Assembly: GCF_022846255.1 (NCBI RefSeq)
Contig: NZ_AP025682.1
Reading direction: 5' to 3' (one strand)
Length of the DNA: 64,000 nucleotides
Source: Escherichia coli
GTDB taxonomy: Bacteria > Pseudomonadota > Gammaproteobacteria > Enterobacterales > Enterobacteriaceae
Shown here: in pieces, positions 7,793 through 63,670 of the stretch
How positions within the stretch are numbered: the first letter of the stretch is position 1
Layout: the number at the start of each line of letters is the position of its first letter
The notes under the pieces: generated by a model
Databases searched by the model: none
Seen by the model: the letters and a program-made list of their open reading frames with translations, nothing else
What the model was told of the DNA's origin: nothing
Translations under genes and position numbers: made by a program

Positions 7793-7868
7793 TGGTGGGT
7801 CGTGCAGGATTCGAACCTGCGACCAATTGATTAAAAGTCAACTGCTCTACCAACTGAGCTAACGACCC
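7793..7868 (-). tRNA. lysV: tRNA-Lys (UUU)
   Basis: Reverse complement reads a 76-nt tRNA with anticodon loop CTTTTAA and 3' CCA. Confidence 0.9.
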
Positions 7869-7872
7869 GAAG

Positions 7873-7948
7873 TGGTGGGTGATGACGGGATCGAACCGCC
7901 GACCCCCTCCTTGTAAGGGAGGTGCTCTCCCAGCTGAGCTAATCACCC
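7873..7948 (-). tRNA. valY: tRNA-Val (UAC)
   Basis: 76-nt tRNA on minus strand; anticodon loop CTTACAA; one of three identical copies. Confidence 0.9.
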
Positions 7949-7994
7949 ACTTCGGTACTTCACATTGTTACAAGAAATCTAGCTGGCGAGAAAG

Positions 7995-8070
7995 TGGTGG
8001 GTGATGACGGGATCGAACCGCCGACCCCCTCCTTGTAAGGGAGGTGCTCTCCCAGCTGAGCTAATCACCC
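7995..8070 (-). tRNA. valX: tRNA-Val (UAC)
   Basis: Identical 76-nt copy. Confidence 0.9.
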
Positions 8071-8114
8071 ACTTCTCAATTTCTTGCTACACGGCGGAGA
8101 CTACATAAAGTAGT

Positions 8115-8190
8115 TGGTGGGTGATGACGGGATCGAACCGCCGACCCCCTCCTTGTAAGGGAGGTGCTCTCCCAGCTGAGCTAATCACCC
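8115..8190 (-). tRNA. valU: tRNA-Val (UAC)
   Basis: Identical 76-nt copy, first gene of the minus-strand tRNA operon. Confidence 0.9.
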
Positions 8191-10888: not shown

Positions 10889-10964
<76 letters not shown>

Positions 10965-11003
10965 AATTTTGCACCCAGCAAATTTGGTACGTAAACGCAT
11001 CGT

Positions 11004-11079
<76 letters not shown>

Positions 11080-49919: not shown

Positions 49920-50136
49920 ATCTCACCTTCCCCTGTGATTAACCTGATGATATTGGACAAAAAAACAACGCAGGCTGACAAACGATAAAATTTGCCTTTC
50001 ACATGAGCTAAATTGCATCAAGGGAGTGATTTACATCTAAAAATGAAGGTGAATTGAGATATGGTTCACTTTAGCTCACCTTACAGCTGAAATTTTGCCG
50101 CTATTTTTTTACACTTAAGAGAAAAATGAGGTGATT

Positions 50137-51072
50137 ATGGAACCCCTTCGTGAAATAAGAAATCGACTGCTTAACGGCTGGCAACTATCAAAACTGCATA
50201 CTTTTGAAGTGGCTGCCAGGCATCAGTCCTTCGCTCTCGCGGCAGAGGAATTGTCGCTGAGCCCCAGTGCGGTAAGTCACCGTATCAATCAGCTGGAAGA
50301 AGAATTAGGTATTCAGTTGTTTGTTCGTTCCCATCGCAAAGTGGAATTAACGCACGAGGGGAAACGTGTTTATTGGGCGCTAAAATCGTCGCTGGATACC
50401 CTGAATCAGGAAATTCTGGATATCAAAAATCAGGAGTTATCGGGAACGTTAACGCTGTATTCCCGGCCCTCTATCGCCCAATGCTGGTTGGTGCCCGCAT
50501 TAGGTGACTTTACACGCCGATATCCGTCTATTTCGCTCACCGTGCTCACTGGTAATGACAATGTCAATTTGCAACGTGCCGGAATCGATTTGGCAATCTA
50601 CTTTGATGACGCGCCGTCAGCGCAATTGACTCATCACTTTCTGATGGATGAAGAAATCTTGCCAGTTTGCAGCCCGGAGTACGCTCAAAGACATGATTTA
50701 ACCAACCAGGTAATTAACCTGCGCCACTGTACGTTGCTCCATGACAGACAGGCATGGAGCAACGACTCCGGTACGGATGAATGGCATAGTTGGGCGCAAC
50801 ATTATGCGGTTAATTTGCCGACATCTTCTGGAATTGGCTTTGATCGCTCTGATTTAGCCGTTATCGCCGCGATGAATCATATTGGGGTGGCGATGGGAAG
50901 GAAGCGTCTGGTACAAAAAAGGCTTGCCAGTGGTGAGCTCGTCGCGCCGTTTGGCGATATGACGGTGAAATGCCATCAGCATTATTACATCACCACATTA
51001 CCGGGCAGGCAGTGGCCAAAAATTGAGGCATTTATTACCTGGTTAAGAGAACAGGTAAAAACCACTTCATAA
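50137..51072 (+). CDS. dsdC: LysR-family activator of dsdXA
   Basis: Track ORF 50131..51072 trimmed to Met-3 (311 aa); divergent from dsdX. Confidence 0.88.
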   Translation: MEPLREIRNRLLNGWQLSKLHTFEVAARHQSFALAAEELSLSPSAVSHRINQLEEELGIQLFVRSHRKVELTHEGKRVYWALKSSLDTLNQEILDIKNQELSGTLTLYSRPSIAQCWLVPALGDFTRRYPSISLTVLTGNDNVNLQRAGIDLAIYFDDAPSAQLTHHFLMDEEILPVCSPEYAQRHDLTNQVINLRHCTLLHDRQAWSNDSGTDEWHSWAQHYAVNLPTSSGIGFDRSDLAVIAAMNHIGVAMGRKRLVQKRLASGELVAPFGDMTVKCHQHYYITTLPGRQWPKIEAFITWLREQVKTTS

Positions 51073-51171
51073 TGAATAAGACCACGAGTTCCTGGTGTGC
51101 CTTATTCGGCACTGCTAGTGCGAATTTAATAATTTACGGTTTTTACGTGGTTTTAGGGATAAACACAAGAA

Positions 51172-51186
51172 TGGTGTCCCCTGCAG
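51172..51186 (-). other. attR-type core: 15-nt copy of a tRNA-Arg (argW-type) 3' end (CTGCAGGGGACACCA on the minus strand)
   Basis: Exact match to acceptor-stem 3' strand plus CCA of argW as I recall that sequence; lies at the chromosome/prophage junction. Confidence 0.6.
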
Positions 51187-51259
51187 ACATCTACTTGAGG
51201 CGGCAGGGGATTGATTGGAATGGTGTTTTTTAGATGTGAGAAATATTTTACCCGCTATT

Positions 51260-51460
51260 TTACCCATTGGCGCGGCTTAAGAGCTTATTTTTGAATTCAC
51301 AATGGTCACGATATAACCATCTTGCTCTCCCGTGGATAACTTTGGCTTTTGGCAGGTCGCCGGACTTAATCCGGTCATAGATGAAGGTTTTACCGAAGCC
51401 AGTATCGGCCATGATGAATTTCAAATCAACCAGTGAATCAGGTTGTAGTTCGTGTTGCAT
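51260..51460 (-). CDS. torI: TorI-type excisionase / recombination directionality factor (66 aa)
   Basis: 66-aa ORF MQHELQPDSLVDLKFIMADTGFGKTFIYDRIKSGDLPKAKVIHGRARWLYRDHCEFKNKLLSRANG; matches my recollection of TorI, and is an AlpA/Xis-like winged-helix protein. Confidence 0.8.
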   Translation of the reverse strand: MQHELQPDSLVDLKFIMADTGFGKTFIYDRIKSGDLPKAKVIHGRARWLYRDHCEFKNKLLSRANG

Positions 51461-51478
51461 GAGTGCTATCTCCGAATA

Positions 51479-51494
51479 GGGAATCGAACCTGCA
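51479..51494 (-). other. second tRNA-derived fragment: 16-nt exact match to the argW T-arm (TTGCAGGTTCGATTCC on the minus strand)
   Basis: Exact 16-mer, about 300 bp inside the prophage, immediately upstream of torI. Confidence 0.55.
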
Positions 51495-51504
51495 AATCAG
51501 GCAA

Positions 51505-51525
51505 TAAAAAACCGCATTGATGCGG
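51505..51525 (-). terminator. rho-independent terminator (minus strand) downstream of the 114-aa gene
   Basis: Hairpin ccgcatcaatgcgg followed by a T-run on the minus strand. Confidence 0.5.
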
Positions 51526-51584
51526 CAATGGTAGGTCTGGATATCTTGAGAAATGAACGGGCCTCATCGAGTGTGAGGCTGTGG

Positions 51585-51929
51585 TTAGTCCTTGCGTAAC
51601 TCGCTAATTCTTCTGTAAGTCTCTGGTGCTTTGTTTCCGTGTATCTTCATTTCAGACTTCAACAGAGCAACGAGAGAATCCCATTCGTTGAGGATGCCTT
51701 TGAATGCCGGAACGCGCTTTGCAACCTTGTCGAATGAATCCCTGATTTCTGGAATCTGCTCGACAAGCGCAACGCATCGTCGGAAATCGGCTGCGTCATG
51801 TGGAGCACCGAAGCTATGACCATAGATATTCTTTTTCAGTCCACATGCGATTGAGGCAAGAGTTGCGCTACTGATGCCAACATCGCCAGTCGATTGCCAT
51901 TTCAAAACCTTCATAGCCAAATCTGACAT
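51585..51929 (-). CDS. hypothetical prophage protein (114 aa), no recognisable domain
   Basis: Track ORF; not hydrophobic; I recognise no family. Confidence 0.55.
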   Translation of the reverse strand: MSDLAMKVLKWQSTGDVGISSATLASIACGLKKNIYGHSFGAPHDAADFRRCVALVEQIPEIRDSFDKVAKRVPAFKGILNEWDSLVALLKSEMKIHGNKAPETYRRISELRKD

Positions 51930-51956
51930 TTCTTGTCTCCAATAAAAAAACCGCCA

Positions 51957-52124
51957 TCAGGCGGCTTGGTGTTCTTTCAGTTCTTCAATTCGAATATTGG
52001 TTATGTCTGCATGTGCTATCTGCGCCCATATTATCCAGTGGTCATAGCAGTCGTTGATGTTTTCTGCTTCGATAACCCTGTTGAATGGCTCTCCATTCCA
52101 TTCTCCTGTGACTCGGAAGTGCAT
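51957..52124 (-). CDS. hypothetical small prophage protein (55 aa)
   Basis: Micro-ORF MHFRVTGEWNGEPFNRVIEAENINDCYDHWIIWAQIAHADITNIRIEELKEHQAA whose stop codon sits in a strong terminator hairpin (gccgcctgatggcggc followed by a T-run); absent from the track because it is under 60 aa. Confidence 0.4.
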   Translation of the reverse strand: MHFRVTGEWNGEPFNRVIEAENINDCYDHWIIWAQIAHADITNIRIEELKEHQAA

Positions 52125-52266
52125 TTATCATCTCCATAAAACAAAACTCGCCGTAGCGAGTTCAGATAAAAGAAATCCCCGCGAGGGCGGGGATGTTAAG
52201 TCGGTGGGGGTACAGTATGGATATCGAAAATTATTGCGCGATTCTCATTACTCCCCTGGGAAAACA

Positions 52267-52725
52267 TTATCTGGCAAGCATACGTTGTTGATGCTGTTTC
52301 ACAACACGTAAACGTAAGCTGTCATAGGCCCAATTGTAGAACATGGTATATGGTAGAAAGAAAAGGAAGAATCCTATCTCTAGTGTAAAAGCCTGTAACA
52401 GACTGACGCTCAGAATCCAGGACACCATAATGACGCCGATCGCGATAAATCCACTTTCAAAGCCCAAAGCATGGAATGCACGAACTTTTGCAGTTCGTTT
52501 TACCTGATGAGCAGGCCAGTAGCGATCAAATAGCATGTTATAGATGATATTCCAGATCATTGCAGTTGAAGCCAACAAGATAGTCATCCCGCCCATTTCG
52601 AGTATAGTTCGCTGCATTAACCATGCTGTGGTGGGGGCCAGAATCGCAGTGGCAATTCCTTCAAAGCAAATAGCGTGAAAAATACGCTCAAGTAACGATC
52701 TGTGTTGAATCGCATTATGTTGCAT
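52267..52725 (-). CDS. PACE-family efflux protein (AceI-like; two tandem bacterial-transmembrane-pair repeats)
   Basis: 152 aa, four predicted TM helices, with the signature repeated once per half: ERIFHAICFEG and VRAFHALGFESG (compare AceI RLIHAISYEG / VRILHAIGFEG). Confidence 0.8.
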   Translation of the reverse strand: MQHNAIQHRSLLERIFHAICFEGIATAILAPTTAWLMQRTILEMGGMTILLASTAMIWNIIYNMLFDRYWPAHQVKRTAKVRAFHALGFESGFIAIGVIMVSWILSVSLLQAFTLEIGFFLFFLPYTMFYNWAYDSLRLRVVKQHQQRMLAR

Positions 52726-52828
52726 AACTTACCTTTCTTACAGTTTCGACCGCGTTATGGAGTTGTGAGATTTTTATCGATTTATGTGATATATAAAAGA
52801 TAGATACCATCGAAAAAATTGATAGATT

Positions 52829-53713
52829 ATGCGTTACTCACTTGAAGCGTTAAGTACATTTGTTGAAGTGGTTTCCTGTGGCTCCTTTTCTGCTGCGGCA
52901 CGAAGATTACGTAAAAGTCAGTCCGCAGTCAGTACGTCAATTGCCAATCTTGAGGTCGATCTTGGTATATCATTATTCGATCGCTCTTCGCGAGAACCTG
53001 TGCTGACAGAGGAAGGAAAGAAAGTATTGAGTTACGTTCATGCGATTTTATCAGCCAGTGAACGTCTTGAGGAGGTGGCGGTTTCGCTTGCCGGAGAGAC
53101 TGAAGCTCGTCTGACGTTTGTGCTTTCCGATACCCTACACCCTGACTTATTAGAAGACATCATGGTGCAGTTTGATAGTCAGTTTCCACATACTGAGTTA
53201 GAGGTTTTAATTGGTGAGGATGTCGATGTCATCGATCTTTTGCAAAAAGAACGAGCGCAGATCGGCTTAATTGAGTCTCGGGAACACTACCCCACCGATA
53301 TTGGCTCAACCCGTTTACCGATGCAAGCGTGGATGGGCATTTATGTTTCGGCGTCACATCCACTGTCTGCAGAAAAAACAATCCAGCGGGAACAACTTCA
53401 TTCATGGCGAGAACTTCGTCTTAATACTTATATCGATAACCGGGAGATGATTGCCCGTGGACCGGTTTGGTCTGCACCTAACTATTTGTTGTTACTCAGT
53501 ATGGCCGTACAGGGATTTGGCTGGTGCTCTCTGCCCTGTGCTCTGGTTGAGGAGTTTGCAACAGAAAAACCGCTGGTTCAGCTCGACGTACCTGGCTGGC
53601 CAAAGGCAATTTCTATCGATCTGCTTTGGAATAAAAAATCGCCACCAGGCGCGGCTGGAAATTGGCTTAAGCATCATTTACAGCATATCAATGCCCCAAA
53701 TAGTCGAACTTAG
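52829..53713 (+). CDS. LysR-family transcriptional regulator (AceR-like), divergent from the PACE gene
   Basis: 294-aa ORF with N-terminal LysR HTH (LEALSTFVEVVSCGSFSAAARRLRKSQSAVSTSIANLE); 103-bp divergent intergenic region. Confidence 0.8.
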   Translation: MRYSLEALSTFVEVVSCGSFSAAARRLRKSQSAVSTSIANLEVDLGISLFDRSSREPVLTEEGKKVLSYVHAILSASERLEEVAVSLAGETEARLTFVLSDTLHPDLLEDIMVQFDSQFPHTELEVLIGEDVDVIDLLQKERAQIGLIESREHYPTDIGSTRLPMQAWMGIYVSASHPLSAEKTIQREQLHSWRELRLNTYIDNREMIARGPVWSAPNYLLLLSMAVQGFGWCSLPCALVEEFATEKPLVQLDVPGWPKAISIDLLWNKKSPPGAAGNWLKHHLQHINAPNSRT

Positions 53714-53834
53714 ATTAGTTAAAATATGGAATCCTGAAATAATCTCTGTTGATATGTGGAGCCATCTTCCAGGCTCCCACCTAAATCATGTTAGCAGTTC
53801 CATTTTTTTGATGATTTCCGCATGAGCATCATCG

Positions 53835-53918
53835 TTATCCCCAGCGACAAATTGAATACAAAACCAGTGCTACCGCCATTGCAATTCCTACCGTTGCGAA
53901 TGCTTCAGGCCAGCTCAT
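53835..53918 (-). CDS. hypothetical 27-aa hydrophobic peptide, start overlaps the stop of the upstream gene
   Basis: ATGA overlap with the 214-aa gene; encodes MSWPEAFATVGIAMAVALVLYSICRWG (single predicted TM helix). Confidence 0.25.
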   Translation of the reverse strand: MSWPEAFATVGIAMAVALVLYSICRWG

Positions 53919-54559
53919 TGATTCACCTCCTGCGGCGGTTCTGGTAGTGGTATCCAGAACAAGGCGTTCCCTAACCACGATAAAGTGCCGTCGCTCAACT
54001 CCACGTATTCCCCTTGCACCTGTCCTGCCATATACTCACCGTGCTTTGAATAAATTAAAATCCAATCATCTTGAGCGGGCATTCGCTCACTACAGCTTAT
54101 CCAACCACCCGGAGTTACCGGAGAGTTGCCGCGTTCTTTAATGTGCAAGCGAGGCTCACCATCTTTTGGTTCAGGCCACTGGCGCTCCATGTTGATCTTC
54201 AATTTATCTTCCATAGCAGCGGTAATTTCAGCATCGCTGATGCCAGCACGGCGCTGTGCATCCCACAACAGGAACTGCATATCAGCCCACTCGCTGAGAT
54301 CGTCTGGTTCGGCTGCGGCTTCCAGAGCCTCTTTTGAGAGGTGTTTCAGTGGACCAATGGGGCCAACGCAGCCAAATGTGGAGTCAGACCATTTGGCATG
54401 CTCGTGGCGAATCTGTTCGCGTTCCAGTGAGGCGAGAGCGATTTTAAATGCTGTAAGCATGTGTGCTTGATCGTTGTCGAGTCCGAATGGCATTTCATCT
54501 CGTGCTGACTCAATACTGGTAATCGTATTTTGTAGCCATTCTTTGGTAAAAGTGCTCAT
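53915..54559 (-). CDS. prophage protein with MazG-like nucleotide pyrophosphohydrolase N-terminal domain (DUF550-like) and DUF551-like C-terminal domain
   Basis: 214-aa ORF; N-terminal acidic helices (EALEAAAEPDDLSEWADMQFLLWDAQRR) and C-terminal DUF551-like segment; common in enterobacterial prophages. Confidence 0.55.
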   Translation of the reverse strand: MSTFTKEWLQNTITSIESARDEMPFGLDNDQAHMLTAFKIALASLEREQIRHEHAKWSDSTFGCVGPIGPLKHLSKEALEAAAEPDDLSEWADMQFLLWDAQRRAGISDAEITAAMEDKLKINMERQWPEPKDGEPRLHIKERGNSPVTPGGWISCSERMPAQDDWILIYSKHGEYMAGQVQGEYVELSDGTLSWLGNALFWIPLPEPPQEVNQ

Positions 54560-54927
54560 CGTAAAATATCCTCTATACTGGTAAGTCCTTCATTATTTAG
54601 CCAGATCATGGCGTCATCCGGCAACTTGCTGTCTGGTTTGGCGTTTTTGAGAGAGGAACTCAGTCGCTTAATCCACATTGTCACCTCAGTAATGCGCCTG
54701 TCTTTGCCTTCCAGCTCAACACGCAGCTTCCCTACTGTTAGCGCAATATCCTCGTTCTCCTGGTCGCGGCGTTTGATGTATTGCTGGTTTCTTTCCCGTT
54801 CATCCAGCAGTTCCAGCACAATCGATGGTGTTATCAATTTATGGAAAAGGTCTGCGTCAAATCCCCAGTCGTCATGCATTGCCTGCTCTGCCGCTTCACG
54901 CAGTGCCTGAGAGTTAATTTCGCTCAC
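54556..54927 (-). CDS. Ead/Ea22-like prophage early protein (123 aa)
   Basis: Acidic coiled-coil protein; start overlaps the stop of the upstream zinc-finger gene. Confidence 0.5.
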   Translation of the reverse strand: MSEINSQALREAAEQAMHDDWGFDADLFHKLITPSIVLELLDERERNQQYIKRRDQENEDIALTVGKLRVELEGKDRRITEVTMWIKRLSSSLKNAKPDSKLPDDAMIWLNNEGLTSIEDILR

Positions 54928-55145
54928 TTCGAACCTCTCTGTTTACTGATAAGCTCCAGATCTTCCTGGCAACTTGCACAAGTCCGACAACCCTGAACGG
55001 CCAGGCGTCTTCGCTCATCTATGGGATCGCCACACTCACAACAATGAGTGGCAGATACAGCCTGGTGGTTCAGACGACGCATTTTTATTGCTGTATTGCG
55101 CTGTAATTCTTCGATTTCTGATGCTGAATCAATGATGTCTGCCAT
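54924..55145 (-). CDS. TraR/DksA-family C4 zinc-finger protein (lambda Orf73-like)
   Basis: 73-aa ORF with CxxC-N17-CxxC (CCECG...CRTCASC). Confidence 0.65.
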   Translation of the reverse strand: MADIIDSASEIEELQRNTAIKMRRLNHQAVSATHCCECGDPIDERRRLAVQGCRTCASCQEDLELISKQRGSK

Positions 55146-55243
55146 CTTCCATTAATCCCTGAATTGTTGGTTAATACGCTTGAGGGTGAATGCGAACAAT
55201 AAAAAAGGAGCCTGTAGCTCCCTGATGATTTTGCTTTTCATGT

Positions 55244-55525
55244 TCACCGTTCCTTAAAGACGCCATTTAACATGCCGATCGCCAGGCTTAAATGAGTCGG
55301 TGTGAATCCCATCAGCGTTACCGTTTCGCGGTGCTTCTTCAGTACGCTACGGCAAATGTCATCGACGTTTTTATCCGGAAACTGCTGTCTGGCATTTTTG
55401 ATTTCAGAATTAGCCTGACGGGCAATGCTGCGAAGGGCGTTTTCTTGCTGAGGTGTCATTGAACAAGTCCCATGTCGGCAAGCATAAGCACACAGAATTT
55501 GAAGCCCGCTGCCAGAAAAATGCAT
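55244..55525 (-). CDS. hypothetical lambda-type early-left protein (start may be the internal Met at 55459, giving 71 aa)
   Basis: Track ORF in the block between the TraR-like gene and exo. Confidence 0.4.
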   Translation of the reverse strand: MHFSGSGLQILCAYACRHGTCSMTPQQENALRSIARQANSEIKNARQQFPDKNVDDICRSVLKKHRETVTLMGFTPTHLSLAIGMLNGVFKER

Positions 55526-55535
55526 TCAGTGGTTG

Positions 55536-55727
55536 TCATACCTGGTCTCTCTCATCTGCTTCTGCTTTCGCCACCATCATTTCCAGCTTTTGTGAAAGGG
55601 ATGTGGCTAACGTATGAAATTCTTCGTCTGTTTCTACTGGTATTGGCACAAACCTGACTCCAATTTGAGCAAGGCTATGTGCCATCTCAATACTCGTTCT
55701 TAACTTAACAGGAGATGCTTTGTGCAT
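55536..55727 (-). CDS. hypothetical lambda-type early-left protein (63 aa)
   Basis: Track ORF; position equivalent to lambda orf63. Confidence 0.4.
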   Translation of the reverse strand: MHKASPVKLRTSIEMAHSLAQIGVRFVPIPVETDEEFHTLATSLSQKLEMMVAKAEADERDQV

Positions 55728-55888
55728 ATCGCCTCCCGTTTATTATTTATCTCCTCAGCCAGCCGCTGGGCTTTCAGTGGATTTTGGATAACAGAAAGGC
55801 CGGGAAATACCCAGCCTCGCTTTGTAACGGAGTAGACGAAAGTGATCGCACCTACCCGGATATTATCGTGAGGATGCGTCATCGCCAT
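55700..55888 (-). CDS. hypothetical lambda-type early-left protein (62 aa)
   Basis: Track ORF directly after exo; position equivalent to lambda orf60a. Confidence 0.35.
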
Positions 55889-56559
55889 TGCTCCCCAAAT
55901 ACAAAACCAATTTCAGCCAGTGCCTCGTCCATTTTTTCGATGAACTCCGGCACCATCTCGTCAAAACTCGCCATGTACTTTTCATCCTGCTCAATCACGA
56001 CATAATGCAGGCCTTCACGCTTCATCCGCGGGTCATAGTTAGCAAAGTACCAGGCATCTTTTCGTGTCACCCACATGCTGTACTGCACCTGGGCCATGTA
56101 AGCCGACTTTATGGCCTCGAAACCACCGAGCCGGAATTTCATGAAATCCCGGGAGGTAAACGGGCATTTCAGTTCAAGGCCGTTGCCGTCACTGCATAAA
56201 CCATCGGGAGAGCAGGCGGTGCGCATACTTTCGTCGCGATAGATGATCGGGGATTCATTAACATTCACGCCGGAAGTGAACTCAAAGAGGGCTCTGGCGT
56301 CGTTCTCGTACTGTTTTCCCCAGGCCAGCGCCTTAGCGTTAACTTCCGGAGCCACACCGGTGCAAACCTCGGCAAGCAGGGTGTGGAAGTAGGACATTTT
56401 CATGTCAGGCCATTTCTTTCCGGAGCGGGGTTTTGCTATCACATTGTGAACTTCTGAAGCGGTGATGATGCCGAGCCGTAATTTGTGCCATGCATCATCC
56501 CCCTGTTCGACAGCTCTCACGTCGATCCCGGTACGCTGCAGGATAATGTCCGGTGTCAT
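55879..56559 (-). CDS. exo: lambda-type 5'-3' exonuclease (Red-alpha)
   Basis: 226-aa ORF near-identical to lambda Exo as I recall it ([30 protein letters not shown]...). Confidence 0.93.
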
Positions 56560-57341
56560 GCTGCCACCTTCTGCTCAGTGGCTTTCTGTTTCAGGAATCC
56601 AAGAGCTTTCACTGCTTCGGCCTGTGTCAGTTCTGACGATGCGCGAATGTCGCGGCGAAATATCTGGGAACAGAGCGGCAATAAGTCGTCATCCCATGTT
56701 TTATCCAGGGCAATCAGCAGAGTGTTAATCTCCTGCATGGTTTCATCGTTAACCGGAGTGATGTCGCGTTCCGGCTGACGTTCTGCAGTGTATGCGGTAT
56801 TTTCGACAATGCGCTCGGCTTCATCCTTGTCATAGATACCAGCAAATCCGAAGGCCAGACGGGCACACTGAATCATGGCTTTATGCCGTAACATCCGTTT
56901 GGGATGCGACTGCCACGGTCCGGTGATTTCTCTGCCTTCGCGGGTTTTGAATGGTTCGCGGCGGCATTCATCCATCCACTCGGTAACGCAGATAGGATGA
57001 TTGCGGTCTTTGCGGTAAATCCGGCATGTGCAGGATTCGTTGTCCTGTTCAAAGTCCATGCCGTCAAACTGCTGGTTTTCGTTGATGATGCGGGACCAGC
57101 CATCAACGCCCACCACCGGAACGATGCCGTTCTGCTTATCAGGGAAGGCGTAAATTTCTTTCGTCCACGGATTAAGGCCGTATTGGTTGGCGACGATCAG
57201 CAATGCGATGAACTGCGCATCGCTGGCATCGCCTTTAAATGCTGTCTGGCGAAGAGTGGTGATCAGTTCCTGTGGGTCGACAGAATCCATGCCGACACGT
57301 TCAGCCAGCTTCCCAGCCAGCGTTGCGAGTGCTGTACTCAT
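56556..57341 (-). CDS. bet: lambda-type single-strand annealing protein (Red-beta)
   Basis: 261-aa ORF near-identical to lambda Bet; start overlaps exo. Confidence 0.93.
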
Positions 57342-57346
57342 CCGTT

Positions 57347-57643
57347 TTATACCTCTAAATCAATATCAACCTGGTGGTGAGCAATGGTTTCAACCATGTA
57401 CCGGATGTGTTCTGCCATGCGCTCCTGAAACTCAACATCGTCATCAAACGCACGGGTAATGGCTTTTTTGCTGGCCCCGTGACGTTGCAAATGATCGATG
57501 CAGAGCGATTCAAACAAATGCTGGGGCAGACCCTTTTCCAGGTCGTCTGCCAGTTCTGCCTCTTTCTCTTCACAGGCGATCTGCTGGTAGTGACGCGCCC
57601 AGCTCTGAGCCTCAAGACGATCCTGAATGTAATAAGCGTTCAT
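57347..57643 (-). CDS. gam: RecBCD inhibitor Gam
   Basis: 98-aa ORF near-identical to lambda GamS ([21 protein letters not shown]...). Confidence 0.9.
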
Positions 57644-57718
57644 GGCTGAACTCCTGAAAATGGCTGTGAAAATATCGCCCGCGAAATGCCAGGCTGATTA
57701 GGAAAACAGGAAAGGGGA

Positions 57719-58009
57719 TTAGTGATTCAGGCCGTTACCGCGTCCGTCGAGAAAAACTTCCACGAGCAAATCACGGGTATAAGTGCGCTCGATGCCGCGA
57801 TGCAGATATAGCCGTCCGCGTAAATTAGCTGATGCAGTCCAGGTACCATCTTTGTGTTTGACCAGCATTCCTGGCATGACCGCACCGCGATTAACGGTCT
57901 GCGTTCCGTAATGTTGATGAACCATAAAAACTCCTGCCCGTAAGCTGGGCTGCTGAACATATAGAGACTTCTGCGCGTATTCAGGCGGTGGATGGCCGCC
58001 GGTTGTCAT
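57719..58009 (-). CDS. hypothetical protein (96 aa), first ORF of the leftward early operon
   Basis: Track ORF preceded by a GAGG ribosome-binding site; matches nothing I recognise from lambda (not N, Kil or CIII). Confidence 0.45.
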
Positions 58010-58059
58010 AACTAAGCCGCCTCGTTGAAGCGACTAAGGTATGAAATGTTGAGTTGATT

Positions 58060-58210
58060 TCAGCTGGTCACACCGACGTTCACGCGTCCGTTTCACCCCT
58101 CGCACTCCCCGAAGCCTGCTGAAATTCAAACTGCGGATCTAAGCGGTCATCGCAACGGTGAATCAGGTGGTTGCCGTATCGTTGTGTTGTTGCGATGAAC
58201 TTATTTAAAA
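58060..58210 (-). ncRNA. structured 5' leader of the leftward early transcript (two long inverted repeats); candidate cis-acting regulatory RNA
   Basis: 9-bp perfect inverted repeat CATCGCAAC/GTTGCGATG (58159-58167 / 58200-58208) and 8-bp inverted repeat ATTTCAGC/GCTGAAAT (58068-58075 / 58129-58136), between the predicted pL and the 96-aa ORF. Confidence 0.3.
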
Positions 58211-58213
58211 CTA

Positions 58214-58256
58214 TAGTTGTTTTATCGTCAACAACAAAAGTTGTTTTATTGGTTGT
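58214..58256 (-). promoter_or_regulatory. candidate pL with overlapping operators (-35 TTGACG, 17-bp spacer, -10 TTAAAT; palindromes AACAAC-N4-GTTGTT and TAAAAC-N7-GTTTTA)
   Basis: Minus-strand hexamers at 58237-58242 and 58214-58219; this cassette is almost a copy of the pR cassette at 59252-59287. Confidence 0.5.
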
Positions 58257-58383
58257 TTTAGATATAACTGGTTGTATTTAGGATGGATTTATTTTGTGAC
58301 TTGAATCGCATAGCGATAACTGAAGCGAGGTTATGGTGGTTTTTTTAACGGTGTGTGTGATGAGGGGAGGGCAAAAGAAAACC

Positions 58384-58410
58384 CGGCACGGTGACCGGGA
58401 TTCTTACGCC
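58384..58410 (-). terminator. rho-independent terminator downstream of the repressor gene
   Basis: Minus-strand hairpin cccggtcaccgtgccggg followed by TTTTCTTTT. Confidence 0.6.
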
Positions 58411-58520
58411 GTTAGGTAAAGATATTATTGCGGTGGCTTAATATTACTACCTAGAGCAAAGATAGGAATTAGTTCTTTACTGAATGAGCACAATGCCCAG
58501 TTGATAATTTTTAATTGGTA

Positions 58521-59210
58521 CTACCCATGCTTCCTATATGTCTGCGGCATGCTCCCAATAACCTTACCGAAGATGAACACCCGGTTCATCTCGTCTTTCT
58601 CGATCGGGTCCCACGGTGAGTAGCTTTTGTTATCAGAGATGACCAGCAGCTTATCCTTCATCATTTGCAGGCGCTTTACATGGGCTGTGTCGTCGTACAG
58701 AAACGCATAGATACCATCACCGTCGAAAGATTTAACTGTGATATCAACGAACAGCAGATCACCTGGTTCGATCGTTCCTGACATGCTGTCACCACGCACG
58801 TTAATGATGCGGATATTTTCCGCCTTCCTACCATCGAACATGTGACGAGCATCGTCAAACGAGTACTCAACCGAGCGTAGAACTTCTACAAACTCACGGT
58901 TGATGACTCCCGGCCCAGCACTGACTTCTATATCAAGAACGTCAATCTTAAAGTATTTGGAATGGCTGACAGTTGATAGTATTGGTTGCACTGTACTGTC
59001 TGACATATTTCCAACGCCAGAAGATAACCATTCTGCGCGCACACCCAAAGCGTTCGCGATCTCCACGATTTTAGTTGTTTGATTAGCTTTCCCTGTTTCG
59101 ATTTTCTGAATAGCAGCCTGGCTAACCCCGACCAAATCCCCAAGCGCCTTTTGTGTAAGGCCTCGCGCTAATCTGGCTTCTTTAAGTCTTTCTGAGAGTG
59201 TTGTTTTCAT
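58521..59210 (-). CDS. cI: CI-like prophage repressor (XRE-type HTH plus S24 LexA-like peptidase domain)
   Basis: 229 aa from the Met at 59210 (track ORF extends to 59273); HTH LTQKALGDLVGVSQAAIQKIE; C-terminal GDSM...K autocleavage-type domain; start lacks a Shine-Dalgarno, consistent with a leaderless pRM-type mRNA. Confidence 0.85.
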   Translation of the reverse strand: MKTTLSERLKEARLARGLTQKALGDLVGVSQAAIQKIETGKANQTTKIVEIANALGVRAEWLSSGVGNMSDSTVQPILSTVSHSKYFKIDVLDIEVSAGPGVINREFVEVLRSVEYSFDDARHMFDGRKAENIRIINVRGDSMSGTIEPGDLLFVDITVKSFDGDGIYAFLYDDTAHVKRLQMMKDKLLVISDNKSYSPWDPIEKDEMNRVFIFGKVIGSMPQTYRKHG

Positions 59211-59216
59211 AGTCCA

Positions 59217-59287
59217 AATGTACAACCAAGGTTTTATTCCATCAAACGAAAATGGTTGTTGACTAAAAAACAACCATAGTTTTAATC
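59217..59287. promoter_or_regulatory. cI-cro divergent control region: candidate pRM (minus; -35 TTGATG, -10 TACATT), pR (plus; -35 TTGACT, -10 TTAATC) and operator palindrome ATGGTTGTT-N8-AACAACCAT
   Basis: 26-bp palindrome 59252..59277 overlapping the pR -35; pRM -10 ends 7 bp before the cI ATG. Confidence 0.5.
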
Positions 59288-59315
59288 TTGATTCAAATTA
59301 ACCACGGAGGTTGTT

Positions 59316-59546
59316 ATGAACCCAGCTATCAAAACAGCGATCAATATCGTTGGTTCACAAAAGAAACTGGGCGCTGCTTGCGAAGTTTCACAGCAGGCCG
59401 TCTATAAGTGGCTTCACAACAAAGCAAAGGTATCCCCTGAACATGTCGGCAGCATTGTTACGGCTACTGGTGGAGTAGTGAAGGCATACCAGATTCGCCC
59501 GGATCTTCCGAAGTTGTTTCCACACACCGAAAAGAACGCAGCTTAA
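59316..59546 (+). CDS. cro: Cro-like repressor (76 aa)
   Basis: Small HTH protein divergent from cI with a GGAGG ribosome-binding site. Confidence 0.7.
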   Translation: MNPAIKTAINIVGSQKKLGAACEVSQQAVYKWLHNKAKVSPEHVGSIVTATGGVVKAYQIRPDLPKLFPHTEKNAA

Positions 59547-59615
59547 ATTTCCATTTCACGCTCTTTAACAATAAGCAATCAACTTAACAGTCAATTCAAA
59601 CTAAAGGAGTCAATT

Positions 59616-60155
59616 ATGCAACCACTTACATACCAACAGACTAGCGGATTTAGCCCGACTGCGGTGATAAATCGTTCTCAAACAAAACAGGCGCCAGGCC
59701 ACGAAAAAATCCGTGATGCCGTTCGCGCCTGGTCGGCTGCAGATAATCAGGATGTTGTTGCCGCACTCATTGTGAATGAGTATCGGGAGCAGGGCGGCGG
59801 CACCATCGATTTCCCTGATGATGTCAGCCGTGCACGCCAGAAGCTGTTCCGCTTCCTCGATAACAAATTCGATTCTGAAAAATACCGAAATAACGTGCGT
59901 GAACTGACCCCGGCAATTCTGGCGGTACTACCGCTGGAATATCGCGGCCACCTGGTTGAGCAGGATAGCTTCATGGCTCGGTTGGCTGAAATGGATAAGG
60001 AACTCAGTGAGGCAAAGCAGGCGGTCATTCTCAACGCACCACGCCACCAGAAACTGAAGGAAATGAGTGAAGGTATTGTGTCGATGTTTCGTGTGGACCC
60101 GGATCTGGCTGGTCCATTAATGGCGATGGTTACCACCATGCTGGGGGCAATATGA
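59616..60155 (+). CDS. CII-like phage regulatory protein (CP76-type, 179 aa)
   Basis: Position between cro and O; family assignment is from memory and uncertain. Confidence 0.45.
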   Translation: MQPLTYQQTSGFSPTAVINRSQTKQAPGHEKIRDAVRAWSAADNQDVVAALIVNEYREQGGGTIDFPDDVSRARQKLFRFLDNKFDSEKYRNNVRELTPAILAVLPLEYRGHLVEQDSFMARLAEMDKELSEAKQAVILNAPRHQKLKEMSEGIVSMFRVDPDLAGPLMAMVTTMLGAI

Positions 60156-61171
60156 CAGGTTCAGAAATGGCGAAAGCCGGTCTGCGGGAACAGAGCCGAC
60201 TTTCAGGTGCAAATCGTAACGCACTCATTGCGGAAGGAATTATGGCAAACACTGCTGAGATATTCAATTTTCCAGTGCCGGATGAGGCACAAAAGGAGCC
60301 GCGCGTGGCAGATCTCGATGATGGTTATACGCGCATTGCAAATGAGTTGCTGGAAGCTGTGATGCTGGCCGGATTAACACAGCACCAGCTTCTGGTCTTC
60401 CTGGCTGTCATGCGCAAAACATATGGCTTTAATAAAAAACTGGATTGGGTGAGCAACGAGCAACTGTCCGAATTGACCGGGATATTGCCGCACAAGTGTT
60501 CTGCTGCAAAAAGTGTTCTGGTAAAGCGTGGGATTTTGATTCAGAGCGGGCGGAATATCGGTATTAATAATGTGGTCAGTGAATGGGCAACATTACCCGA
60601 ATCAGGTAAGAAAAATAAAGTTTACCTGAAAGAGGTAAATTTACCTGAATCAGGTAAGAAAAGTTTACCCAAATCAGGTAAAGGCGTTTACCCGAATCAG
60701 GTAAACACAAAAGACAAACTAACAAAAGACAATATAAAACCTTTTTCGTCAGAGAATTCTGGCGAATCCTCTGACCAACCAGAAAACGATCTTCCTGTGG
60801 TGAAACCAGATGCTGCAATTCAGAGCGGCAGCAAGTGGGGGACAGCAGAAGACCTGACCGCCGCAGAGTGGATGTTTGACATGGTGAAGACCATCGCGCC
60901 ATCAGCCAGAAAACCGAATTTTGCAGGGTGGGCTAACGATATCCGCCTGATGCGTGAACGTGACGGACGTAACCACCGCGACATGTGCGTGCTGTTCCGC
61001 TGGGCATGCCAGGACAACTTCTGGTCCGGTAACGTGCTGAGTCCGGCCAAACTCCGCGACAAGTGGACCCAGCTCGAAATCAACCGAAACAAGCAACAGG
61101 CTGGCGTGACAGCCGGCAAACCAAAACTCGACCTGACGAACACTGACTGGATTTACGGGGTGGATTTATGA
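60152..61171 (+). CDS. O: replication initiator O (divergent N-terminal iteron-binding domain, lambda-like C-terminus)
   Basis: 339-aa ORF; C-terminal 120 aa near-identical to lambda O; internal iterons at 60594-60706. Confidence 0.88.
   Translation: MTGSEMAKAGLREQSRLSGANRNALIAEGIMANTAEIFNFPVPDEAQKEPRVADLDDGYTRIANELLEAVMLAGLTQHQLLVFLAVMRKTYGFNKKLDWVSNEQLSELTGILPHKCSAAKSVLVKRGILIQSGRNIGINNVVSEWATLPESGKKNKVYLKEVNLPESGKKSLPKSGKGVYPNQVNTKDKLTKDNIKPFSSENSGESSDQPENDLPVVKPDAAIQSGSKWGTAEDLTAAEWMFDMVKTIAPSARKPNFAGWANDIRLMRERDGRNHRDMCVLFRWACQDNFWSGNVLSPAKLRDKWTQLEINRNKQQAGVTAGKPKLDLTNTDWIYGVDL
60594..60706 (+). repeat. ori iterons inside the O gene (four or five copies of TTACC[CT][GA]AATCAGGTAA[AG] with 23-24 bp periodicity) followed by an A-rich tract
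   Basis: Direct repeats read at 60594, 60621 (degenerate), 60641, 60664 and 60688. Confidence 0.8.
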
Positions 61172-61869
61172 AAAACATCGCCGCACAGATGGTTAACTTT
61201 GACCGTGAGCAGATGCGCCGGATCGCCAACAATATGCCGGAACAGTACGACGAAAAGCCGCACGTACAGCAGGTAGCGCAGATCATCAATGGTGTGTTCA
61301 GCCAGTTACTGGCAACTTTCCCTGCGAGCCTGGCTAACCGGGATCAGAACGAACTGAACGAAATCCGCCGCCAGTGGGTTCTGGCTTTCCGGGAAAACGG
61401 GATCACCACAATGGAACAGGTTAACGCAGGAATGCGCGTAGCCCGTCGGCAGAATCGACCATTCCTGCCATCACCCGGGCAGTTTGTTGCCTGGTGCCGG
61501 GAAGAAACATCCGTTACCGCCGGGCTGCCAAACGCCAGCGAGCTGGTTGATATGGTTTACGAGTATTGCCGGAAGCGTGGCCTGTATCCGGACGCAGAGT
61601 CTTATCCATGGAAATCAAACGCGCACTACTGGCTGGTTACCAACCTGTACCAGAACATGCGGGCCAATGCGCTGACTGACGCGGAATTACGGCGTAAAGC
61701 TGCCGATGAGCTGACCTGTATGACCGCGCGAATTAACCGTGGTGAGGCGATACCTGAACCAGTAAAACAACTTCCTGTCATGGGCGGTAGACCTCTAAAT
61801 CGTGCACAGGCTCTGGCGAAGATCGCAGAAATCAAAGCTAAGTTTGGGCTGAAAGGAGCAAGGGTATGA
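61168..61869 (+). CDS. P: replication protein P (DnaB helicase loader)
   Basis: 233-aa ORF near-identical to lambda P; start overlaps O. Confidence 0.92.
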   Translation: MKNIAAQMVNFDREQMRRIANNMPEQYDEKPHVQQVAQIINGVFSQLLATFPASLANRDQNELNEIRRQWVLAFRENGITTMEQVNAGMRVARRQNRPFLPSPGQFVAWCREETSVTAGLPNASELVDMVYEYCRKRGLYPDAESYPWKSNAHYWLVTNLYQNMRANALTDAELRRKAADELTCMTARINRGEAIPEPVKQLPVMGGRPLNRAQALAKIAEIKAKFGLKGARV

Positions 61870-62168
61870 CGGGCAAAGAGGCAATTATTCATTACCTGGG
61901 GACTCATAAGAACTTCTGTGCGCAGGACGTTGCCGTGGTAACAGGCGCAACCGTAACCAGCATAAATCAGGCTGCGGCTAAAATGGCACGGGCAGGTCTT
62001 CTGGTTATCGAAGGTAAGGTCTGGCGAACGGTGTATTACCGGTTTGCTACCAGGGAAGAACGGGAAGGAAAGATGAGCACGAACCTGATTTTTAAGGAGT
62101 GTCGCCAGAGTGCCGCGATGAAACGGGTATTGAGGGTATATAAAAGAACATCAATGGGTACACAATGA
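61866..62168 (+). CDS. ren: Ren protein (100 aa)
   Basis: Near-identical to lambda Ren (MTGKEAIIHYLGTH...); start overlaps P. Confidence 0.85.
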   Translation: MTGKEAIIHYLGTHKNFCAQDVAVVTGATVTSINQAAAKMARAGLLVIEGKVWRTVYYRFATREEREGKMSTNLIFKECRQSAAMKRVLRVYKRTSMGTQ

Positions 62169-62235
62169 TGAAACAGATGAGTTGAGTTCAAACTGTAGTA
62201 CAATTCTCTCCAGTTTGAACAGGAAAGAATATGCT

Positions 62236-62568
62236 ATGAATCCTTATATTTATCTTGGTGGTGCAATACTTGCAGAGGTCATTGGTACAACCTTAATGAA
62301 GTTTTCAGAAGGTTTTACACGGTTATGGCCATCTGTTGGTACAATTATTTGTTATTGTGCATCATTCTGGTTATTAGCTCAGACGCTGGCTTATATTCCT
62401 ACAGGGATTGCTTATGCTATCTGGTCAGGAGTCGGTATTGTCCTGATTAGCTTACTATCATGGGGATTTTTCGGCCAACGGCTGGACCTGCCAGCTATTA
62501 TAGGCATGATGTTGATTTGTGCCGGTGTGTTGGTTATTAATTTATTTTCACGAAGCACACCACATTAA
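62236..62568 (+). CDS. emrE: SMR-family multidrug efflux protein EmrE (110 aa)
   Basis: MNPYIYLGGAILAEVIGTTLMKFSEGF... with the conserved Glu14; track ORF 62182..62568 trimmed to this Met. Confidence 0.9.
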   Translation: MNPYIYLGGAILAEVIGTTLMKFSEGFTRLWPSVGTIICYCASFWLLAQTLAYIPTGIAYAIWSGVGIVLISLLSWGFFGQRLDLPAIIGMMLICAGVLVINLFSRSTPH

Positions 62569-62601: not shown

Positions 62602-62629
62602 AGCCCGCATAAGTGCGGGCTGCTTTTTA
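62602..62629. terminator. bidirectional rho-independent terminator between emrE and the convergent esterase gene
   Basis: Hairpin agcccgcataagtgcgggct followed by a T-run. Confidence 0.6.
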
Positions 62630-63670
62630 CAGGTCAGCGTTTGTTTTTTGTTGTTGGGTAGCGGTTTTTATGGGGGTTCCCAGGTTTTTAGTAAACCACT
62701 CAACAACTCTGTTTATAATAATTGGCTGATACCATGTATTATCTCCATGCTCAGCCCCTTCTACCAGAACGTACTCAGCGTTATCGCCGTTCTTCTTCAA
62801 CATCCTGAATAGTTTGGCGCTTTGCTCAGGTGAAACCAGAGTGTCTTTGCTACCATGCATAATAAGAAATGGGGGGTTTACTCCTTTCATATGTCCGATT
62901 GGACTGGCGTTTAGCGCTTTTTCTTTTGACGCTGTTATGGGGGCTCCCGCAAAACTTCTGAATGCAGGGCCATTGATCATTAAGGCTTCGGTTACGGCAG
63001 GAGATCGATGAACCTCCTGCACAGATTCAGGGAACCCCTCGCCAATATTCAACAAGTCAGAAATCCCATAAAGTGTGGCAACTGCCTGAACATCTGCTGA
63101 TTGCTGAAGAAAGTCACCTTTATCAAAGGTTTTGTCACCATTTGTAGTTCCCATCATCTGGGCAAGCCATCCACCGGCAGAGTCACCCAGAACTCCGATT
63201 CTTTGAGGATCAATCCCATAATCGCTGGCATGTTCTCTCAAGTAACGTATTGCAGCTTTCCCATCCTCAACTGGTGCTGGAAATGTATCAGGAATTGTTC
63301 TGTATTCTACAGCGGCCACAACAAAACCAGCTTCAGCCAGAGCCATTCTCATTTCAATAAATTTGTCATGTTCAGAAGACATGAATCCGCCGCCGGGATA
63401 ATAAATAATGGCTGGTTTTAAATCATTTGTTCGTGGGACAAGAACTGACATGTGAAGCTGTCTGACAGAACGAGTTCCTTTTATCTGGGAATAAACAACA
63501 TCACCAATGAGATCGACCTGGTTTCTGGTCGGTGAAACACTAATGATATCTGCACCCGGGGTGTAACCAGGAAGATTAGTCTGGACAGGTGTTGCACAAC
63601 TCCCGACCGACATGGCCATTGACATACCATACAATAGTGTTGCAGATGATAATATCTTGTTAATTTTCAT
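62627..63670 (-). CDS. secreted or lipoprotein alpha/beta-hydrolase (esterase/lipase, hormone-sensitive-lipase-like)
   Basis: 347-aa ORF with N-terminal signal peptide ending ...SVGSC, oxyanion-hole motif YYPGGGF and nucleophile elbow GDSAGG; low GC by eye. Confidence 0.75.
   Translation of the reverse strand: MKINKILSSATLLYGMSMAMSVGSCATPVQTNLPGYTPGADIISVSPTRNQVDLIGDVVYSQIKGTRSVRQLHMSVLVPRTNDLKPAIIYYPGGGFMSSEHDKFIEMRMALAEAGFVVAAVEYRTIPDTFPAPVEDGKAAIRYLREHASDYGIDPQRIGVLGDSAGGWLAQMMGTTNGDKTFDKGDFLQQSADVQAVATLYGISDLLNIGEGFPESVQEVHRSPAVTEALMINGPAFRSFAGAPITASKEKALNASPIGHMKGVNPPFLIMHGSKDTLVSPEQSAKLFRMLKKNGDNAEYVLVEGAEHGDNTWYQPIIINRVVEWFTKNLGTPIKTATQQQKTNADL

Follow-up and report, generated by a model that had tools for sequence, protein, structure and literature searches.

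The O and P genes

In the window, that is, the whole 64-kb stretch of Escherichia coli DNA that was analyzed, the gene of the replication initiator O extends over 60242..61171 on the plus strand and encodes 309 aa when counted from the ATG homologous to that of lambda. The open frame continues on the 5' side as far as the ATG at 60152 (339 aa). RefSeq uses this ATG as the start, and it overlaps the stop codon of a ydaT-like gene; the 309-aa and the 339-aa forms are both present in public protein sets. At 60242, the residues MANTAEIFNF align with MTNTAKILNF of lambda, and a Shine-Dalgarno motif (GGAAGGA) stands 3 nt ahead of the codon. The homology with the O proteins of lambda, phi80 and Klebsiella phages, together with this motif, points to ATG 60242 as the probable start of O.

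Residues 21-115 of O match the Pfam family Phage_rep_O (PF04492) with an E-value of 1.4e-34 and 118.9 bits, for a cutoff of 28.7. Based on Pfam and AlphaFold2, this N-terminal origin-binding domain (60302..60586, plus strand) is predicted to be a winged helix. The AlphaFold2 model has a mean pLDDT of 78, with values of 89-94 over aa 71-110, and it places the predicted recognition helix at aa 83-95 (PHKCSAAKSVLVK) and a beta-hairpin wing at aa 99-108. A fold search of the PDB with this model returned weak matches (E ≥ 0.008), mostly to winged-helix regulators (CAP/FNR, MarR, IclR), and a sequence search of the PDB with O gave zero matches and no solved homolog. The domain shares 48% amino-acid identity with its lambda counterpart, the first ~345 nt of the gene being diverged.

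The C-terminal part of O (60705..61168, plus strand) is of the lambda type, with 94.2% nucleotide and 94.2% amino-acid identity to O of 434/lambda, and it is presumed to be the P-interacting domain. Megablast matches to lambda-type phages begin at query positions 541-554, which correspond to ~60692-60705 in the window, at the end of the iterons described below. Downstream of this lambda-like domain comes the P gene (61168..61869, plus strand), coding for a lambda-type DnaB helicase loader (Pfam Phage_lambda_P, E = 8e-62). Its product is 97.4% identical in amino acids to P of 434/lambda, and Ren is 94% identical to that of lambda.

A leftward promoter-like site, TTGAAT-17-CATAAT with a TG, was tentatively located at 60239..60267 on the minus strand. 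Its -10 element overlaps the O start codon, as is the case for pO of lambda. It was the sole match in the promoter scan, but shuffled sequences gave 2.5 matches, so the scan alone is not significant, and we keep the site only as a tentative positional analogy to lambda pO. Neither an oop-like stem-loop nor a T-run terminator was found downstream of it (60150-60235, compared with pO/oop of 434). A pO-like leftward transcript would be antisense to the O ORF extension and not to cII.

The iteron array and the A/T-rich tract

Direct reading and repeat finders both revealed five 17-bp near-palindromes with the consensus TTACCYGAATCAGGTAA at 60593-60704; the unit reaches 18-19 bp once the conserved flanking T/A are counted. 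All five fit the consensus in this copy, and the start-to-start intervals between iterons 1 to 5 are 29, 19, 24, and 23 bp. Iteron 1 (60593..60609, TTACCCGAATCAGGTAA) begins 29 bp upstream of iteron 2 and is additional with respect to lambda: it corresponds to a 30-nt insertion, or 10 codons, relative to O of lambda/434, and was found in all 80 related loci. Iteron 2 (60622..60638, TTACCTGAAAGAGGTAA) occupies the position of lambda ITN1 and is followed at 19 bp by iteron 3 (60641..60657, TTACCTGAATCAGGTAA), at the position of ITN2. Then come iteron 4 (60665..60681, TTACCCAAATCAGGTAA), 24 bp further on and at the position of ITN3, and, after another 23 bp, iteron 5 (60688..60704, again TTACCCGAATCAGGTAA), which stands at the position of ITN4 and abuts the A/T-rich tract.

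The iteron pattern (up to 3 mismatches, both strands of the 64-kb window) gave 11 matches for 0.14 ± 0.40 expected by chance, the expectation being drawn from 100 dinucleotide-preserving shuffles, none of which reached 11. The five sites match on both strands because each iteron is a near-palindrome with dyad symmetry. An isolated match with 3 mismatches (TACCCTGAATCAGGAAA) also lies within dsdC, at 50397-50413, and is compatible with chance. An Rfam scan of 57000-62500 placed on the array only a chance-level match to rliD (E = 0.34).

Iteron 5 is directly followed by an A/T-rich tract of 40 bp (60705..60744; ACACAAAAGACAAACTAACAAAAGACAATATAAAACC...), which is A-rich on the plus strand. It aligns with the A/T-rich region of lambda/434, forms the left edge of the lambda-like half of O, and is presumed to be the DNA-unwinding element. 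Its core motif, CACAAAAGA(C/A)A, is common to most of the lambdoid O types examined: it is present in the origins of P22, HK97-type phages, the Providencia phage, Sf101, epsilon34, SEN34, and the Klebsiella phages, and in a diverged form in phi80-like origins. The tract is followed by an inverted repeat at 60745..60778 (TTCGTCAGAGAATTC-tggc-GAATCCTCTGACCAA), with 15-nt arms that are 87% complementary and a 4-nt loop, in which every base is the same as in lambda/434.

The first-pass annotation of this DNA had described four or five direct repeats of 18-19 bp with regular spacing at 60594-60706. The repeats are real and these coordinates were right to within 1-2 bases; the count, however, is five and not four. 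The A-rich tract announced after the repeats was recovered as well, with a G+C content of 0.25-0.275 and an AT skew of up to +0.73. The repeats had been assigned to the coding region of the divergent N-terminal domain: they are indeed inside O, and this domain is divergent, but the array itself sits in the inter-domain linker, just past the end of the Pfam N-terminal domain at 60586, where it marks the border between the divergent and the lambda-like halves of the protein. The general layout of a lambdoid ori, with iterons, A/T-rich tract and palindrome inside O, is well borne out, the last two elements being nearly identical to those of lambda/434.

Constraint on the iterons

Conservation was studied on 80 related IMG/VR loci, from which 61 distinct sequences were aligned. 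Over the ten half-site positions of each iteron, only 8% of the columns vary (mean entropy of 0.022), as compared with 72% of the third-codon positions of the N-terminal domain (entropy of 0.52) and 70% of the positions in the inter-iteron spacers. When only third-codon positions are considered, 7% of the half-site columns vary vs. the same 72% in the neighboring domain. In this alignment, codon periodicity vanishes inside the array. Also, the linker peptide is only 28% identical to that of lambda, and yet the geometry of the iterons is conserved.

The iterons are translated in two frames: three copies encode LPESGKK, LPESGKK, and LPKSGKG, vs. VYLKEVN and VYPNQVN for the other two. With two copies out of five translated in another frame, what is repeated is the DNA and not the peptide. 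From this sequence comparison, the constraint on the iterons, five direct repeats of about 18 bp with internal dyad symmetry within an O-type gene, acts on DNA independently of coding.

Iteron types and origin specificity

Repeats were extracted from 14 O sequence types, representing 17 O genes of lambdoid phages. Lambda, ES18, and epsilon34 share ATCCCTCAAAACGAGGGA, phi80 and mEp237 share TTCCCGAAAACGGGAA, and Gifsy-2 has ATCCCCGAAAACGGGGAT. The iterons are TTACC-N5-GGTAA in P22 and the Providencia phage, TTAGC-N7-GCTAA in HK97-type phages, phiES15, MS2_LVA, and SEN34, and GTCAC-N7-GTGAC in Sf101. The prophage of the window shares TTACC-N7-GGTAA with Klebsiella phages such as RCIP0098. A spacing of 20/24/23 bp recurs in 434/lambda, P22, HK97-type phages (mEp213), the Providencia phage, and Sf101. 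Iterons 2-5 of the window, at 19/24/23 bp, thus correspond by position to lambda ITN1-4, iteron 1 being supernumerary.

Over the 14 O types, the residues at the start of the recognition helix follow the half-site: HKCS or TKCS goes with TTACC, THxC with TTAGC, KRCN with TCCCT, and THVS, KHVS, or SHIS with TCCC(G/C). This covariation, read by eye from the alignment for 14 O types in about six iteron classes, and with a helix taken from a model of moderate confidence (pLDDT 78), is suggestive of a matched pair formed by the N-terminal domain and its iterons, in what is a small sample. Combined with the conservation of the iterons at the DNA level, it leads us to infer that this origin has a distinct specificity.

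The O gene was compared with lambda by alignment with phage 434, whose record marks a lambda-type origin. As in lambda, the origin is inside O and has dyad-symmetric iterons, with 24/23-bp spacing and a first interval of 19 vs. 20 bp; the right palindrome is the same, the A/T-rich tract nearly so, and the similarity extends to the C-terminus of O (94%), P (97%), and Ren (94%). In contrast, the iterons are TTACC-N7-GGTAA vs. TCCCT-N7-AGGGA in lambda, they are five (with the 30-nt insertion) vs. four, and the iteron block cannot be aligned. Moreover, a YdaT-like protein replaces cII, and an oop terminator is lacking.

With gene 18 of P22 and the Providencia phage PSTNGR2lys, the origin shares the TTACC/GGTAA half-sites, the 20/24/23 pattern, and the CACAAAAGACAAT motif of the A/T-rich region. 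However, the center of the P22 iterons is 5 bp, vs. 7 bp in every copy here, P22 has four iterons, and the C-terminus of gene 18 is unrelated and paired with a DnaB-type helicase (gene 12) instead of a lambda P loader. The origins of phi80 (gp15 sites) and HK97-type phages similarly comprise about four dyad-symmetric repeats in an O-like gene followed by an A-rich tract, and phi80 has the SSENSDESSD/palindrome segment too. They differ in their N-terminal domains, since those of phi80, HK97-type phages, phiES15, and SEN34 are only 39-60% identical to the domain of the O studied here, and the phi80 iterons (TTCCCGAAAACGGGAA) are spaced at 20/21/21 bp.

According to others, phage 82 has iterons of its own, reportedly five, next to a right half and a P that are compatible with lambda. 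Late-region genes (Q) are common to phage 82 and DLP12-type prophages, quuD being nearly identical to Q of 82. The iteron type of the window may therefore be that of the classical phage 82 origin. No phage of that name was recovered from the phage collection, including when it was searched with quuD of DLP12. Origins with additional iterons are also known from the Shiga-toxin phages 933W and P27, which have six lambda-like iterons, the extra copies lengthening the origin and O with respect to lambda (PMC7466680); the primer table of this study indicates that these iterons are of the lambda type in sequence (PMC7466680). The extra iteron of the window likewise lengthens O, by 10 codons, but its iterons are not lambda-type in sequence.

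The initial annotation had also put forward a non-lambda iteron sequence, which an exact match to the lambda iterons would have contradicted; the consensus TTACCYGAATCAGGTAA is distinct from ATCCCTCAAAACGAGGGA. The comparison with known ori types that it suggested gives iterons that are neither those of lambda nor those of phi80, and not exactly those of P22. Its proposal that the phage has its own origin specificity gains support from the sequences, although other phages and prophages have the same type of origin. As for a lambda-like C-terminus interacting with P, the percentages given above for O and P agree with it, and the interaction with P is presumed.

Distribution and modularity

The segment comprising the N-terminal domain and the iterons was detected in 2,295 of 5,426 complete E. 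coli genomes (~42%), in prophages of the DLP12 family. Among the lambdoid O/ori alleles found in complete E. coli genomes, the one with TTACC-N7-GGTAA is the most frequent. Hundreds of public contigs encode exactly this O protein, which falls in a 90%-identity cluster of 7,825 members bearing generic names ("replication protein"). About 15 deposited phages, among them PhiR30_1, PhiR26_1, Turner, Lambda_4C10, 4A7, 1W, 3W, and Perceval, carry this O/ori at 97-99% identity; PhiR30_1 and PhiR26_1 are among those deposited with laboratory E. coli C or K-12 as the listed host. We infer that these, as well as Turner, 4A7, and Perceval, replicate using this allele. The records of the deposited phages annotate O and leave the origin and the iterons unannotated; an origin is annotated in the records of 434, phi80, P22, ES18, and epsilon34. 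The iteron strings (both orientations, with variants) were absent from open-access papers.

Exactly five iterons were counted in 79 of the 80 IMG/VR relatives, and the N7 center in all of them. The relatives include Klebsiella-type phages in which the N-terminus of O is 83-85% identical, and the C-terminus and its partner (an IstB/DnaC-like ATPase) are unrelated to those of lambda. The same N-terminal-plus-iteron module is joined to at least four C-terminal types; in E. coli, it is associated with the lambda type and lambda P. The N-terminal domain and the iterons form one exchangeable module, of which the mosaic junction is the A/T-rich tract.

Two loci presented variants of this organization. 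In L079 (IMGVR_UViG_2910596823_000013, ~1850-2080), nine iterons are present, with two extra in-frame copies of a 48-bp segment holding iteron 1 and iteron 2; these duplications lengthen O by 32 aa and constitute a natural origin expansion. In L062 (IMGVR_UViG_2939121850_000004, from ~1990 onward), the O frame and the homology break inside the A/T-rich tract after ...AAACTAACAAGG; unrelated sequence lies beyond the break and O ends at 162 aa, which suggests that the origin has undergone an insertion or a rearrangement.

Prophage context

In the best E. coli matches, which belong to the DLP12 family, the order of the modules is intD ... exo-bet-gam ... repressor, cro, ydaT, O, P, ren, emrE, ybcK ... 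quuD. Upstream of O, we found an S24/HTH repressor gene on the minus strand, a YdaS_toxin/Cro-like gene at the position of cro (59316-59546), and, in the place of cII, a gene for a YdaT_toxin-domain protein of 179 aa (59616-60155), labeled "cII" in deposited phages. The right part of the immunity region (59316-60155) is Rac-like and not lambda-like. Downstream, emrE (SMR multidrug efflux, in the ORF 62182-62568) comes directly after ren, a hallmark of DLP12 (61866-62568), and a gene for an alpha/beta-hydrolase with a signal peptide (62627-63670, minus strand) takes the place that ybcK has in many E. coli strains. The end of the window lies about 2 kb beyond P.

On the left side, neither an integrase nor a tRNA was detected between dsdC (50131-51072) and exo-bet-gam (55879-57643), and the left arm of the prophage looks rearranged or degraded. 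Mixed with the phage-like ORFs of the region 51100-55800 are those of a small membrane protein (52267-52725) and of a LysR-type regulator (52829-53713). The tRNA clusters of the window are far off, in ordinary chromosomal context: Lys-Val-Val-Val at 7793-8190 on the minus strand and two tRNA-Ala(GGC) at 10889-11079 on the plus strand. A closely related DLP12-type prophage, in E. coli GE3 (L006, 10600-12201), has a SIR2-family gene between kil and the repressor gene, which is likely anti-phage defense cargo.

Alternative explanations

The repeats could merely encode a flexible, repetitive linker of O (LPESGKK-like) without serving as DNA sites. The array is indeed translated and located between two domains, and three of its copies give LPESGK-like peptides. 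But the two copies in the other frame, the dyad symmetry of every unit, the near-invariance of the half-sites at third-codon positions, the loss of codon periodicity, and the maintenance of iteron geometry over a peptide so different from that of lambda all stand against it. A mere peptide repeat is effectively refuted by the frame and conservation analysis, and we regard such an explanation as extremely improbable. We attach just as little credence to an ordinary lambda specificity, i.e., lambda iterons. The right half of the origin, the C-terminus of O, and P are all lambda-like, but TTACCYGAATCAGGTAA differs from ATCCCTCAAAACGAGGGA at most half-site positions, and the 48% identity of the N-terminal domains is accompanied by a different helix start (HKCS vs. 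KRCN in lambda). At the level of sequence, lambda iterons are refuted. A specificity identical to that of P22 gene 18, or cross-reacting with it, is less easily dismissed, as P22 and the Providencia phage have the same half-sites, and as gp18 of P22 is the closest classical N-terminal domain (66%) with a helix start of TKCS vs. HKCS. It nevertheless seems unlikely to us: the center is 2 bp longer in each of the five copies and throughout the 80 relatives, which alters the distance and the rotation between half-sites for a dimer, and the N-terminal domains differ at about one third of their positions.

Another explanation accepts the array as an intact origin, and considers it as a fossil in a defective, domesticated prophage without autonomous replication. 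This prophage copy may be defective, and its origin may never fire in this strain. Such a view is in keeping with the DLP12-like context in which ren is followed by emrE, with the left border near dsdC where no integrase or tRNA was detected and where the early-left genes include those of a LysR regulator and a membrane protein, and with the occurrence of the allele in ~42% of E. coli genomes, as is typical of prophage remnants that have long been resident. On the other hand, the O, P, repressor, Cro-like, and YdaT-like genes are all open, the five iterons match the consensus, and an identical module is carried by deposited phages. We consider this alternative as a real possibility, if less probable than not, and it concerns current activity rather than the identity of the element.

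Proposed function of the array

In our opinion, the array is very probably the left half, the one that determines specificity, of a replication origin belonging to a lambda-like prophage of the DLP12 family. The anatomy of the locus, the DNA constraint on the half-sites, the non-lambda iterons, the divergent N-terminal domain, and the lambda-like C-terminus with P are results obtained at the sequence level. Iteron binding, unwinding, and helicase loading are suggested by homology with lambda and by conservation. Along these lines, dimers of O would bind each 17-bp dyad-symmetric iteron (TTACC-N7-GGTAA) through their N-terminal winged-helix domain, and the bound five-iteron array would assemble a nucleoprotein complex (the "O-some"). 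Stressed by this complex, the neighboring A/T-rich tract (60705-60744) would open, and O would then recruit a lambda-type P-DnaB complex through its lambda-type C-terminal domain, thus loading the host helicase. By analogy with lambda biology, the helicase would be released by the host chaperones DnaK, DnaJ, and GrpE.

Biological significance

The element is an ordinary lambdoid origin that is neither of the lambda nor of the phi80 kind, and that is related to, but distinct from, that of P22. Its importance lies mainly in annotation, as it locates the replication origin of the prophage; it belongs to a class known from textbooks, and E. coli genomes carry it very commonly. Also, about four in ten complete E. 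coli genomes have this O/ori allele, whose iterons are of a type unlike those of the textbook phages lambda, phi80, and P22. We hold as a tentative and rather doubtful idea that TTACC-N7-GGTAA constitutes a lambdoid specificity class never explicitly characterized, with P22-like half-sites, a dimer spacing wider by 2 bp, and a fifth iteron, and that no other lambdoid O/ori allele is as widespread in E. coli, with ~42% of complete genomes carrying it, for the most part in resident prophages of the DLP12 type.

The locus is a clean example of the lambdoid mosaic rule, in which the N-terminal domain moves as a unit with its iterons, and recombination at the conserved A/T-rich tract associates them with varied C-terminal domains and helicase-loader partners. 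Possible uses include the annotation of the origins that are now unmarked in about 15 deposited phage genomes, and the prediction of whether co-resident prophages and incoming phages are compatible in replication or interfere with one another. If the idea of a distinct TTACC-N7-GGTAA class is true, its resident O proteins and origins could act on superinfecting phages equipped with the same module, by complementation, titration, or interference.
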